Notes under the pieces: model-generated
Database searches by the model: none
What the model was told of the DNA's origin: nothing
The model's input: only the letters and a program-made list of their open reading frames with translations
Made by a program: the position numbers and the translations under genes
Shown: positions 39,399-43,254 of the stretch, piece after piece
How positions within the stretch are numbered: the first letter of the stretch is position 1
Layout of the letters: every line of letters begins with the position of its first letter
Origin: Candidatus Ryanbacteria bacterium RIFCSPLOWO2_12_FULL_44_26
GTDB lineage: Bacteria > Patescibacteriota > Minisyncoccia > Ryanbacterales > HO2-45-13
Direction of reading: 5' to 3'
Length of the DNA: 43,254 nucleotides
Assembly: GCA_001821765.1 (NCBI GenBank)
Contig: MHOA01000010.1
Location: 1 to 43,254, forward strand

Positions 39399-39608
39399 GA
39401 AATTATAGTCCAAGCCACTGAGGTTTTGAGGCAAGCGGGTGCGTTTTAAGCAATCCTGTTATAATGTCGTTTTTCGTTTTTCGTTTTTGCTTTCCCAGTT
39501 ACAAAGTGAACACACCGGCACTGTTTTGTATTCTTAATTTCAGGAAAGCTATTAGTTTTAGCTTGTTGTGTATTTCTTTAAAGCCAATATAAACGTTTAT
39601 TGCTTTTT

Positions 39609-39638
39609 TTGACGCTCTTGATTTTCTGTAACTATTAT
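39609..39638 (+). promoter_or_regulatory. Promoter of rnpB
   Basis: TTGACG-18 bp-TATTAT about 12 nt upstream of P1. Confidence 0.55.
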
Positions 39639-39650
39639 GGTAATCTATTT

Positions 39651-40525
39651 TTGGAATGTATCGTGTAATCGCCCCCTCACCTAAAAAGCGTTATTTTTTT
39701 GATTGCTCCTTGGGACGCCTTCACCATTGATATGCTTTTCAGCGGTAAGGTCAACAATGGTTTTAGGAATCACAACATATGTTTAAAGCTTTTTAGGTGA
39801 GGGGGAGGAAAGTCCGGGCACCGCCGTGTGTACTTCGCACACAACTAATAATAAATAACTCATAGCAAATAGCTTTTGTCGATCGCTGTTATTAGTTGCG
39901 GGCGGGGTGTGCACGGGAGAGGTAGTGGCTAACGGCCACCCGTCCCAGCAACAATAATAAAAAATTTATTGTAGCCGGGATACGAGAAAGTACCACAGAA
40001 ACTATACCGCCCTTCGATACGCTCAGGACAAGCCGCTTTTTGAAGGAGGCCTCTAGTTCTGAGTCCGCCAGATGGCGGATCGAAGAGTAAGGGTGAAAAG
40101 TGTGGTGTAAGAGACCACGGCACAATATGGCGACATGTTGTGATGGAAAACACTTATCACATATTTTATCAAAGATGTGTGATCCTGCGTTTTGCAGGAC
40201 CCGGTGCAACCCTGTGCGCATCTCACTACCGTTCGATGCAGAGTTATGAATAACGAATTATGAATTTAGGGTTTACATTGATTTTCTAATTCTTTATTCC
40301 AGTTTCTTATATCGAGCTGTGGCGAGGTGCGAAGGGGCTTGAGTCCGGAAGCAATCTCGGACCTAGACAGATGATTACGCCAATTTTGTCTGGCGGAGTC
40401 GAAAACAACATTGAGCGTTCTGCTATGAGCGGGGGCAACCCCGCAATCCCGCGGGATCCTCAATGTCGCGGCTTTATCGCTTAGGTGAAATTGGAACAGA
40501 ACCCGGCTTATAGATACGTTCTCAA
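39651..40525 (+). ncRNA. rnpB: RNase P RNA, greatly expanded (~875 nt)
   Basis: GAGGAAAGTCC (39805), P8 GTGGCTAACGGCCAC, AGTACCACAGAAA, GGGTGAAA, GCTTGAG, CTAGACAGATGA, ACAGAACCCGGCTTA (40496). P1 TTGGAATGTATC/GATACGTTCTCAA, P2 GTGTAATC/GATTACGC, P5 GCACCG/CGGTGC. Confidence 0.93.
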
Positions 40526-40570
40526 TACAACAAAAACCCCGCTTTAGCGGGGTTTTTGTTGTATTGAGAA
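40519..40570. terminator. 25-bp perfect inverted repeat, bidirectional terminator
   Basis: TTCTCAATACAACAAAAACCCCGCT-TT-AGCGGGGTTTTTGTTGTATTGAGAA. Confidence 0.85.
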
Positions 40571-40602
40571 AAGCAATAAAACCGACTCGGTGCTATGCTT
40601 TG

Positions 40603-40833
40603 TTATTCTCCTTTCTCTTCTATTAGGGCAACCTCTATTTTTCTTGGTATATCCCTTCTTCTCTCGAGTCTTTCTAAAATTTCCTCTATCTGATTTTTTT
40701 TATAAAGACGGTAGTTATTAAAGGGGTGTCTGTAAGGAATAAGTTTGCCCTGTTTATCCCAGTTACGAAGTGTCAATGTGGTAACGCCCAACAAAGAAGC
40801 GGCAGATTTTATTGTGTAGTATTCGTTTTCCAT
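40603..40833 (-). CDS. Stand-alone MerR/BldC-type HTH DNA-binding protein
   Basis: YTIKSAASLLGVTTLTLRNWDKQGKL..YRHPFNNYRLY. Confidence 0.85.
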   Translation of the reverse strand: MENEYYTIKSAASLLGVTTLTLRNWDKQGKLIPYRHPFNNYRLYKKNQIEEILERLERRRDIPRKIEVALIEEKGE

Positions 40834-41184: not shown

Positions 41185-43254
41185 GTGGAAAAAAAACGCA
41201 AGGACAAGTATATTCCAATATCAAAACTGGCGGATGAAACCCCTTACAGTGCGGAGTATTTAAGCTTGCTCGCGAGACTAAAAAAGTTAGAAGCAAAAAA
41301 GCTTGGACGTAATTGGTATAGCACTCAAGCCGCTATTAAAAAATACCTTGCAAGACAGGCTGAAAGAAAAACCGTTCACGGAAACTTATTAAAAAATTAT
41401 GCCGGCATTGAGGAACCAAAACACGAAGTTCATGCCGCTGTCGCTCCTTTTTTGGACGCCGATGCAGGCAGTAGCGAAATTTTTAAAAACCAAAAGGATA
41501 CGAAAACTCAAGGAAGGCCTGTTTTTACCAGCGGACAATTTAGTGAAATAAATAACAACAGTGAACAAAAAAATAAAGGCGATGCGTTGTTTGAACGGTT
41601 TATAGAACGGTTCATCAAATTTTTGGATCTCTCTATTGAATCGCATTTTGGAATATTCCACAAGGTTTGGCGAACATTTAAAAGAGAGGTTAAAAGAATA
41701 GCAAAAAATCCTGCTAAAACCCTTATAGCCCTCATTTTAATTATTTTACTTACGCTTTTCCCTGCGAGTAAAGTGTTTAGCGATTTTAATGATGTTGTGT
41801 TTTATGCATATCAAAAAATAAGAGATGCAGAAACGTTAATGGGTCATCGCGCAGGAACGAGTCCCGGGGATGTGTTGCTTATTGATAAGTTTGGAAATAT
41901 TTCTATAAGAGGTCATATTGAGACAGAGGGGCAATTGCGCTCCTTTATAAAAGATGGCGTAGCGCCCATAGTTGTTGACTCTCTAACGAAAGTTGAAAAT
42001 TTAAACGTTGATTATTTGGATAATTTGTCTTCGGAAGATTTTACGCTGGCGTTTGTTACAAAAAACGGAAACATTACGTACGAAGATGTGTTTTTGGAGG
42101 GAAATGTAGAAGTTGGGAAAAAATTGCTTGTGAGAGGAGCGACAGAGCTGATGCAGGAGTTGACGGCACATGGGAAGTTATATGCGCTTGATGAAGCATT
42201 CTTTTCTAAAAACATTACGGTGAAGGGCGCCGCTGGCGTGCGCGATCTCTTGGCTGAAGGTTTTATTGTCGGCAAAGCTATACAAGGGGAAACCATATTT
42301 GCAGAAAAGGAAATCGCAGCGCCGGTGGTTACCGGCACAACTCGTGTTGAAGGAAAGTTTATAAGGGCCGGGAATCTTACTGTTGACGGGCAAAGCGTCT
42401 TTGGAGGAATGACCATGCATAACGGGGGGCTTTGGGCTACGCATGGTTCATTTAGAGATTCGCTGGAAACGGGCGGGAATTTTAGCGCATTTGGCGATGA
42501 TATAAACTTAGGAAAAGCGGCAAAGAGTAAAATTGTCGTATATGGACAGAGTTTTACGTTTAATGGAAGCACTGTTTGCACCAAATCTTCATGTCCATCT
42601 GCAAACGACAGCGGCTGGACCGACGACGGAACAATAGTTCGGCTTACTGCCAACACCGACATTGTTGGAATTGGCACGACATCCCCGTGGGATAGCGCCG
42701 CTTTGGCAATAGAGCAAAACGGCTCCGCGCCGTCATTTGTTGTTGGTGATGACGGCACCTCCACGCCCCTTTTTTATATTGATCCAAAAGGAAATATCGG
42801 TATCGGCACCACATCCCCAGCGCGGGATTTTGCTGTGTTAGGAGCAACATACCAAACCGGCACATCAACAGTTGGAAATCTTATAAAAACCCTTGGCACG
42901 GGAACATCTACCATTGCCGGCCGACTGGAGGTTACCGGAAGAATACTTGCCGATGGCGGAGGCAGGGTTTGTACGTCAGCGAATGGGGTGTGTTCTGCCT
43001 CCGCCGCAGGCGGCTGGACCGATGACGGCACGGTGGTGCGGCTCACGACCGCCACCGACCAGGTCGGGATCAACACGACCACCCCGTGGGGGCAATTCTC
43101 CGTTGACCAGCTGGATGATCAGGGACGGCGCAAACCCATCTTTGTTGTCGGCGATAACGGCACCTCCACTCCGCTGCTGTTTGTCACACAGAAAGGCATC
43201 GTCGCGCTGGGGTCCACCACTCCCGGAGCCAATCTGCTCAAAGGAAGTCTGGTG
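41185..43254 (+). CDS. Giant surface protein, partial (runs off window): N-terminal HTH, TM, tail-fibre-like GIGTTSP repeats
   Basis: Frame +1 from GTG 41185 with no stop seen (absent from the track). YIPISKLADETPYSAEYLSLLARLKKLEAKKLGRNWYST; TM LIALILIILLTLF; APIVVDSLTKVENLNVDYLD; two GWTDDGT.VRLT..TD.VGI.TT.PW units. Confidence 0.85.
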   Translation, partial: MEKKRKDKYIPISKLADETPYSAEYLSLLARLKKLEAKKLGRNWYSTQAAIKKYLARQAERKTVHGNLLKNYAGIEEPKHEVHAAVAPFLDADAGSSEIFKNQKDTKTQGRPVFTSGQFSEINNNSEQKNKGDALFERFIERFIKFLDLSIESHFGIFHKVWRTFKREVKRIAKNPAKTLIALILIILLTLFPASKVFSDFNDVVFYAYQKIRDAETLMGHRAGTSPGDVLLIDKFGNISIRGHIETEGQLRSFIKDGVAPIVVDSLTKVENLNVDYLDNLSSEDFTLAFVTKNGNITYEDVFLEGNVEVGKKLLVRGATELMQELTAHGKLYALDEAFFSKNITVKGAAGVRDLLAEGFIVGKAIQGETIFAEKEIAAPVVTGTTRVEGKFIRAGNLTVDGQSVFGGMTMHNGGLWATHGSFRDSLETGGNFSAFGDDINLGKAAKSKIVVYGQSFTFNGSTVCTKSSCPSANDSGWTDDGTIVRLTANTDIVGIGTTSPWDSAALAIEQNGSAPSFVVGDDGTSTPLFYIDPKGNIGIGTTSPARDFAVLGATYQTGTSTVGNLIKTLGTGTSTIAGRLEVTGRILADGGGRVCTSANGVCSASAAGGWTDDGTVVRLTTATDQVGINTTTPWGQFSVDQLDDQGRRKPIFVVGDNGTSTPLLFVTQKGIVALGSTTPGANLLKGSLV

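Follow-up and report, generated by a model that had tools for sequence, protein, structure and literature searches.

Bacterial ribonuclease P (RNase P) RNA, the product of rnpB, is a textbook example of a compact ribozyme. According to the P Finder report, prokaryotic RNase P RNAs measure 250 to 550 nucleotides (nt), with a mean of 374 nt for the A type (n = 2203) (PMC7191817). The RNase P RNA of Candida glabrata, at 1149 nt, has been called the largest described up to then (PMC3001073, citing Kachouri et al. 2005). For members of the bacterial Candidate Phyla Radiation (CPR), Lui et al. (2021) reported RNase P RNAs with "large extensions of helices" and found that default cmsearch thresholds passed over 10 of the 35 RNAs studied and that 23 of the 35 lacked the CCA-binding motif (PMC8172020). 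A literature search for unusually large RNase P RNAs with insertions returned nothing relevant, one on Saccharibacteria returned only PMC8172020 as relevant, and one that combined RNase P RNA with Patescibacteria found no paper in the library searched. In this study, we analyzed a 43,254-nt stretch of DNA (positions 1 to 43,254 of contig MHOA01000010.1, here called the window) from Candidatus Ryanbacteria bacterium RIFCSPLOWO2_12_FULL_44_26 and focused on its rnpB gene, which occupies window positions 39653 to 40522. Positions are those of the window, and features lie on its plus strand unless another strand is given. With its ends set by the pairing of helix P1 and by inspection, the gene is 870 nt long and type-A-derived. 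This is far outside the length range described for complete genomes, yet it is part of a recurrent trend in the lineage. The RNA is extreme but not unique, and helix extensions in CPR bacteria were already known qualitatively. We consider it probable, at about 0.62, that the gene specifies an intact or largely intact 870-nt type A ribozyme that works with RnpA and carries its arms as tolerated expansion segments.

Type A RNAs (Rfam family RF00010; Escherichia coli M1 RNA, 377 nt) share with the RNA of the window the conserved regions (CR) CR-I to CR-V, helices P1 to P5 and P7 to P14, P18 with a GNRA tetraloop, the bulged U of P4, and the protein partner RnpA. The window RNA differs from them in length (870 nt versus the mean of 374 nt), in seven arms, in the missing GGU motif of loop L15, in having no separate P6, P16, or P17, in hairpins on both strands of the P5/P7 junction, and in an Rfam score below the gathering cutoff. 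It shares with the CPR RNAs of PMC8172020 the same phylum-level group, the misses at search thresholds, the helix extensions (including, in one example, an extended P15), and the loss of the CCA-binding motif. In comparison with what is described there, the window RNA is extended at seven sites amounting to about 640 nt, is tied to palindromic repeats, and keeps P12, P13, P14, and P18. The section of PMC8172020 on these RNAs gives no lengths, and its supplementary figures S5 to S7 may show comparable extended structures. The 1149-nt nuclear RNase P RNA of C. glabrata is likewise a conserved core inflated by large insertions (PMC3001073). It differs in being eukaryotic, in having many protein subunits, and in how many insertions it has, where they sit, and how they arose. 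These insertions reportedly stay in the mature RNA. The insertions of CPR ribosomal RNAs (rRNAs) and the intervening sequences that RNase III excises from 23S rRNA are alike in that they too enlarge an essential structured RNA at its peripheral helices, whereas the arms of rnpB are simple hairpins of 16 to 136 nt with no intron signature and no open reading frame (ORF). With type B RNAs (RF00011) the RNA shares a hairpin between P5 and P7 (P5.1 in type B), but it yields no RF00011 match and has P13 and P14; P10.1 and P15.1 are absent from it by informal inspection.

Identity, core anatomy, and copy number

When positions 39500 to 40700 were searched in E-value mode, rnpB matched RF00010 with an E value of 1.9e-22 and 74.5 bits; a genome-wide search gave 72 bits. 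The type B model RF00011 had no match in the genome at E values up to 1. At Rfam gathering thresholds the window yields two tRNAs only and no rnpB, so that genome annotation and completeness checks at standard thresholds would report RNase P RNA as absent. The RF00010 alignment wrongly places the 5' end at 39871 and forces P1 to P3 onto sequence from 39871 onward, which we attribute to the inserts. P8, CR-II, CR-III, P13, P14, P18, CR-IV, and CR-V are placed correctly by cmscan with high posterior probability, and P12 is also placed correctly. The initial annotation, which was made from the sequence alone, had described a giant RNase P RNA of about 875 nt with the universally conserved motifs in order and proposed alignment to both models as a check. 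Sequence and folding bear out a giant rnpB, at an exact length of 870 nt, and CR-I to CR-V are indeed present, ordered, and invariant or nearly so in an alignment of rnpB with six relatives, including 352- to 402-nt RNAs of the same order (alignment A1).

The catalytic core (P1 to P5, P15, P18, CR-I, CR-IV, and CR-V) is ordinary in size and sequence. P1 (39653-39662 with 40513-40522, 10 base pairs [bp]) and P2 (39663-39670 with 40373-40380, 8 bp) were assigned by inspection; P1 was also recovered in the unconstrained fold of the 870 nt, and two genomes of the same family, G001 and G002, share the P1/P2 layout. CR-I (AGGAAAGUCCGGGC, 39807-39820) is an invariant block in A1. P4 pairs AAG-U-CCGG at 39810-39817 with 40503-40509 and has its usual bulged U at U39813, and the 5' strand of P5 (39819-39823) pairs with 40202-40206, both by inspection. 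The 3' strand of P5 (CCGGUG) and the joining region J5/15 (GCAAC) at 40200-40210 belong to an invariant block of A1, CGGUGCAA. P15 reads CCCU/AGGG, with an internal loop of GUG on its 5' side and A on its 3' side. P18 at 40343-40362 is capped by a GCAA loop and is followed by CR-IV (AGACAGAUG, 40365-40373) and the 3' strand of P2 at 40373-40380, P18 and CR-IV being supported by cmscan and A1. CR-V (ACAGAACCCGGCUUA, 40496-40510, from A1 and inspection) includes the 3' strand of P4 and leads into the 3' strand of P1, which ends at 40522.

The specificity domain (P7 to P14, CR-II, and CR-III) is equally ordinary in size and sequence. The 5' strand of P7, whose register is uncertain and not fixable by eye, and P8 lie at 39917-39940 (cmscan and A1), where P8 is the hairpin GUGGC-UAACG-GCCAC at 39925-39939. 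The 5' strands of P10 and P11 and CR-II (CCACAGAAACUAUACCGCC, 39991-40010) occupy 39985-40010, a near-invariant stretch in A1. As the CR-II 19-mer also matches RNase P genes across many phyla, it was rejected as a lineage-specific marker and used only to collect a cross-phylum length sample. CR-III (AAGGGUGAAAAG, 40089-40100) is placed by cmscan and invariant in A1, and P13 (40102-40118, GUAAGAG loop) and P14 (40121-40142, GCGA loop), also placed by cmscan, form invariant blocks. After P14, GGAAAAC and the 3' strand of P7 extend up to 40155 (cmscan and A1). Both cores are thus intact, as judged from the cmscan alignment and the invariant blocks shared with the six relatives.

The genome (890,527 bases in 14 contigs) is rated 100% complete, and rnpB is its sole RF00010 locus. 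Hence, a second normal rnpB, which the initial annotation had considered, is not found, and no type B RNA is matched either. An RnpA of 122 amino acids (aa) is encoded next to a YidC-like gene; it matches PF00825 at 73.5 bits (72.9 in another search) over profile positions 1 to 108 of 109 and has the stretch RNAVKRKTRE. With RnpA canonical, the suggestion that the expansions compensate for an altered RnpA is not supported. PF08745 (PIN_5), which we take to cover the protein-only HARP enzymes, has no match in the genome. As the sole functional RNase P RNA, the rnpB transcript would act with the canonical RnpA to cut 5' leaders off precursor tRNAs (pre-tRNAs). A functional ribozyme of about double the usual size had been proposed for this reduced genome; rnpB is a single-copy gene there, its length exceeds twice the norm, the genome measures 890 kb, and catalytic activity of the RNA is predicted. 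An antisense ORF of 109 aa (39895-40221, minus strand) was rejected as a gene, having no Pfam match and overlapping the conserved core.

Seven expansion arms

The seven arm segments make up 639 of the 870 nt, and the net excess over the 352- to 402-nt RNAs of the same order is approximately 470 to 520 nt. In A1, the arms appear as clean insertions between invariant core blocks. Each arm was folded alone and compared with 200 shuffles, and the whole RNA was compared with 20 shuffles. For none of the seven arms did any of the 200 shuffles fold as well (z scores of -4.0 to -6.4), and the unconstrained fold of the 870 nt recovers all seven arms with a z score of -9.2. The sites are helix ends or junctions, positions that in other RNase P RNAs are likewise variable or occupied by helices. 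The arms would have grown from the ends of the peripheral helices P3, P9, P12, P15/16, and P19 or from the P5/P7 junction.

The P3 arm (39671-39806, 136 nt) is closed by 18 contiguous bp and folds at -53.6 kcal/mol (z = -6.2). The P3 region measures approximately 17 to 21 nt in relatives of the same order, and the arm is an insertion relative to G004, G018, and G005 in A1. G001 and G002 have P3 arms of roughly 100 nt and of unrelated sequence. The hairpin between P5 and P7 (39824-39916, 93 nt; z = -5.6) occupies the site of P5.1 in type B RNAs. At the same site, five of the six relatives in A1 have a hairpin of 16 to 24 nt, and G001 and G002 differ there by four compensatory pairs. P9 (39941-39984; z = -5.8) is modestly extended and A/U-rich, ending in an 8-nt A/U loop with no GNRA cap; the P9 arms of G001 and G002 reach approximately 100 to 130 nt and show compensatory changes. 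P12 (40011-40088, 78 nt; z = -4.0) is branched, one branch being a long hairpin and the other a CCGCC/GGCGG hairpin, in place of the 18 to 48 nt found in relatives in A1.

Two extra hairpins (40156-40183 and 40184-40199) separate the 3' strand of P7 from that of P5 and together give a z score of -6.4. They have no counterpart in the six relatives of A1 or, by eye, in G048, G086, G122, or G134. The P15/16 arm (40207-40337) is a long, near-continuous hairpin of -48.7 kcal/mol (z = -6.1) at a site that measures 14 to 30 nt in relatives in A1; in those from the same order, P15 is a plain hairpin. The P19 arm (40381-40494, approximately 113 nt) gives a fold of -48 kcal/mol over 40381-40493 (z = -5.1), with an outer stem CAAUUUU.../...AAAUUG and an inner stem ACAUUGAG/CUCAAUGU. 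The motif at its base, CCAAUUUUGU, is common to six loci (from G000, the genome analyzed here, and from G015, G017, G086, G122, and G101) in several families. The initial annotation had placed inserts in P3, after P5, in P9 and P12, at 40156-40198, in P15/P16, and in P19, and sequence and folding agree with these coordinates. It had also described P19 as approximately 113 nt and branched; the size holds, but the minimum-energy fold is a long interrupted stem that is not clearly branched.

The arm stems contain 34 G-U pairs compared with 4 A-C 1x1 mismatches, and the sense strand folds more stably than the antisense strand in six of the seven arms, P9 being the exception. Both are expected from selection on the transcribed strand and not from a mere DNA palindrome. 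Such selection would keep the arms paired on the RNA strand, so that the fold of the core is left undisturbed. Between G001 and G002, a two-sequence consensus fold, which is biased toward pairs that fit both sequences, gave 17 compensatory, 119 unchanged, and 9 one-sided pairs, with several of the compensatory ones inside their arms.

Authenticity of the sequence

The listing for the sequence comprised 20 public runs, drawn from 12 studies, and 14 of the 20 contain half or more of the words sampled. These metagenomes come from groundwater and soil, and nine are flagged as possible sources. Four runs that were not flagged as sources (X10, X12, X14, and X19) were compared by contig. Three contigs from X10 show no differences over 39500-39841, 39849-40008, and 40017-40700, leaving gaps of 7 and 8 nt, and X12 and X14 supply further exact pieces. 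No single contig covers the whole gene, and depth is 3 to 6; P3 and P12 are bridged by contigs, as are the junction hairpins, P15/16, and P19. Misassembly, a concern raised together with the initial annotation, is unlikely and is disfavored by these exact contigs from nonsource runs.

In X19, the gene itself is covered at 40336-40525 only, where a 190-nt contig is exact and connects P18 with the entire P19 arm, CR-V, and the 3' strand of P1. The remaining X19 contigs match the conserved core of other organisms, and missing coverage elsewhere in the gene was counted neither for nor against any reading. Apparent joints (for example, from 39821 to 40493) were rejected as deletions, since they come from the compact rnpB genes of other organisms.

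The alternative that rnpB is silent or in decay, or that the locus is an assembly chimera, with tRNA 5' processing left to something else, would fit the score below the Rfam gathering threshold and the finding that no run on record as RNA contains the gene. We regard this as very improbable. The conserved regions are all intact and in order; neither a second rnpB nor a type B RNA nor a PIN_5 protein was found in a genome rated 100% complete; RnpA is retained; exact contigs come from several runs; and the stems keep G-U pairs, not random mismatches.

Length within the lineage

Within the same family, P1 pairing gives 723 nt for G001 and 611 nt for G002, with arms in P3, in P9, after P9, in P15/16, and in P19. 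The order comprises 22 genomes, and in its other families the spans matched by the covariance model (CM) are 352 to 571 nt. In a sample of 151 genomes of the class, 142 had an RF00010 match, 104 of them above the gathering cutoff, and nine had none at E values up to 0.001. RNAs of 909 nt (G048), approximately 830 nt (G122), and approximately 760 nt (G086) were measured by hand in this sample, and CM spans reached 749 nt in G134 and 704 nt in G116. Among the RNAs measured, that of the window ranks second, and only that of G048 is longer. In a phylum sample, also of 151 genomes, 144 had a match (119 above the cutoff) and seven had none at E values up to 0.001; the largest CM span was 647 nt, and three genomes had at least 600 nt, CM spans being liable to under-measure rnpB length. 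Most genomes with no match in the class and phylum samples are more than 90% complete.

The initial annotation had allowed that such lengths might prove routine in the lineage, and the survey supports this in part. Lengths of 600 to 900 nt recur in the family and class but belong to a minority, with at least 7 of the 151 class genomes (including G000 and G001) reaching at least 700 nt, a lower bound in view of the nine genomes with no match and several partial matches. In a haphazard cross-phylum sample from CR-II pattern matches, the distance from CR-I to CR-V, obtained for 188 of 235 matches, had a median of 301.5 nt and a maximum of 583 nt, the latter being the record of G001 itself; in the rnpB of the window, it is 689 nt. 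A strict chain of eight anchors for measuring length worked for only 41 of 290 loci and was dropped, and no statistics were drawn from it.

The 870-nt RNA, with relatives of up to 909 nt, illustrates the load of peripheral RNA that the bacterial core is able to bear in an organism whose genome is minimal. The natural series of 352, 611, 723, and 870 nt within one order is suited to tests of which peripheral contacts are needed.

Origin of the arms

None of the arms has a second copy in the genome by BLAST, which returned nothing beyond chance words of at most 18 nt; the arms thus do not form a repeat family there. Searches of the 870 nt against 401 genomes of the class returned core segments only, except for RNA positions 583 to 660. 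This distal core of the P15/16 arm (40235-40312) resembles a dispersed palindrome of TTATGAA-type heptad repeats. It has matches of 74 to 79% identity outside rnpB in G122, G147, G333, and G396, and the matched places are palindromes of such heptads (for example, G147:C24:47759-47824). A 17-nt motif, searched with up to 2 mismatches and with its backwards version as the control, occurred 36 times in G147 (control, 1), 28 times in G396 (control, 1), 20 times in G122 (control, 3), and 5 times in G333 (control, 0). In the genome of the window, the copy in rnpB is the one match (control, 0).

A comparable pattern is seen in the rnpB genes of two relatives. In G048 (L038:928-1836), a 145-nt AT-rich palindromic element is present twice at 90% identity (L038:1015-1159 and 1335-1479), one copy being in the hairpin after P5 and the other in P12. 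The P15/16 arm of G134 holds an ORF of 126 aa (L039:1072-1452, plus strand) with a GIY-YIG match (PF01541, 45.4 bits), which has the look of a homing-endonuclease-like gene that settled in a helix of rnpB. The match of the P15/16 arm to a dispersed palindrome suggests how arms arise: palindromic DNA would have inserted at positions that code for loops and then drifted, a course that may also have given rise to arms other than P15/16. Together with the duplicated element and the GIY-YIG ORF of the relatives, the palindrome-like arm offers a concrete route for the birth of expansion segments. With the P19 base motif in six loci and the hairpin after P5 in five of the six relatives, as against the palindrome-like P15/16 arm, some arms appear to be old features that were extended and others insertions.

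The arms could instead have gained functions of their own, such as binding extra proteins in a ribonucleoprotein like that of eukaryotes, tethering the enzyme to ribosomes or membrane, or stabilizing the fold in lieu of the lost P6/P16/P17 and L9 contacts. Pairing that is kept at the RNA level would agree with this, as would the conservation of the base of P19 and of the post-P5 hairpin across several families, the missing P6, P16, and P17, and a P9 with no GNRA cap. However, arm sequences show no relationship even among members of the family, sizes at a given site range from 0 to more than 130 nt among relatives, and one arm resembles a selfish palindrome. There is also no linked partner gene, the neighbors being ftsA, ftsZ, a MerR-like gene, and a gene for an unknown 690-aa protein. 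We therefore regard acquired functions as a decidedly doubtful explanation of the arms.

Intact or fragmented RNA

The main rival to an intact ribozyme is fragmentation by RNase III. The arms would then be intervening sequences of an 870-nt primary transcript, some of them excised by RNase III or another nuclease without religation, and the ribozyme would consist of two or more pieces kept together by the stems that are left and by tertiary contacts, like 23S rRNA fragmented by loss of its intervening sequences. RNase III is encoded in the genome (C1:223352-223744; PF14622, 134 bits), and the arms are long, near-perfect duplexes in place of terminal loops. RNase P RNA is able to reassemble from pieces in vitro, which also counts for this explanation. 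The rRNA genes of the same genome carry large insertions as well. Its 16S gene is 2224 nt long (C1:210620-212843) compared with 1533 model positions and contains a group I intron (RF00028, 63.2 bits), and its 23S gene measures 4358 nt (C1:248217-252574) compared with 2925 positions, or approximately 1430 nt extra. ORFs within the 16S and 23S genes, inserts included, have no Pfam match. The two genes are approximately 35 kb apart and do not form one operon. The transfer-messenger RNA of the genome is of normal size (361 to 363 nt). Insertions are reported in 31% of CPR 16S genes, with metatranscriptomic support for their removal (PMC9698310).

Several points tell against excision of the arms from the RNase P RNA. 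The X19 contig links P18 and CR-V across the entire P19 arm, so that this arm would be kept if the run were RNA; X19 is labeled metatranscriptomic but is rated "probably DNA," and it is weak as evidence of retention. No intron family matches 39500-40700 at E values up to 10, and thus no arm matches one, whereas the same library finds the group I intron of the 16S gene. Up to seven cuts would leave many small pieces to assemble. Moreover, we know of no naturally fragmented bacterial RNase P RNA, and if the arms are excised, this would be the first natural example of a fragmented RNase P RNA. On balance, we consider fragmentation unlikely. Still less likely is its more elaborate form, a split RNase P of several pieces held together by hairpin stumps, with arms seeded by a family of mobile palindromes that colonizes the loops of essential structured RNAs in the class.

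In our preferred interpretation, that of an intact or largely intact ribozyme, the arms would mostly stay in the mature RNA, like the expansion segments of eukaryotic rRNA or the insertions of the C. glabrata RNase P RNA. A number of observations weigh against it. No run on record as RNA, among those listed, contains rnpB. With RNase III encoded, several arms hold 13 to 18 contiguous bp within longer near-duplexes and might be cleaved. The scores of 74.5 and 72 bits are below the RF00010 gathering score of 100 bits. P6, P16, and P17 are not present as separate elements in the fold or in A1; the P15 arm is one continuous hairpin, and a hairpin occupies the J5/7 position in place of the P6 pseudoknot with P16/P17. 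The junction hairpins at 40156-40199 sit at the hinge of the two domains, and their harmlessness is only assumed. The counts of compensatory pairs from G001 and G002 carry the bias of their two-sequence consensus fold. No close relative sharing these arms, from which covariation within them could be read, turned up when the 870 nt were searched by BLAST against all collected loci and the 401 class genomes. Nor were variant letters reported in runs X10, X12, and X14 that could provide covariation at the population level. Finally, the GGU motif of L15, which pairs with the CCA of tRNA, is absent from rnpB by inspection and in the fold, although 25 of the 44 tRNA genes found by ARAGORN encode the 3' CCA.

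The missing GGU agrees with the 23 of 35 CPR RNAs that lack the motif. As a separate observation, the missing GGU and the mixed encoding of CCA raise the possibility that recognition of the 3' end differs between the two classes of tRNA.

Transcription signals and neighboring genes

A consensus scan upstream of rnpB found a promoter-like pair, TTGACG at 39609-39614 and TATTAT at 39633-39638, with an 18-nt spacer. This one site compares with a shuffle mean of 2.1 and alone is no better than the shuffles. An extended -10-like sequence, TGGTAATCT, at 39638-39646 ends 6 nt before P1, and in G001 and G002, TGGTATAAA ends 7 nt before the 5' end of P1, as judged by eye. The position of this candidate element, 6 to 7 nt before P1, is thus kept in three members of the family.

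Upstream of rnpB are ftsA and ftsZ. The other neighbors are the gene for the unknown 690-aa protein and the MerR-like gene. The former is an ORF of more than 690 aa at 41185-43254 (plus strand) that runs past the end of the window and has no Pfam match at E values up to 0.01. The latter encodes a MerR-type helix-turn-helix protein of 76 aa (40603-40833, minus strand) and is convergent with rnpB. Right after P1, inspection revealed a perfect palindrome of approximately 23 bp (40520-40569), with the core CCCCGC-UUUA-GCGGGG followed by U5. A simple terminator scan gave no sites, probably because it measured the U run after the full stem. The palindrome appears as a self-match at 40519-40570 and, on either strand, is weakly matched by Rfam families of leaders that bear terminators; it can be read as a hairpin resembling a bidirectional intrinsic terminator, common to rnpB and the convergent MerR-like gene.

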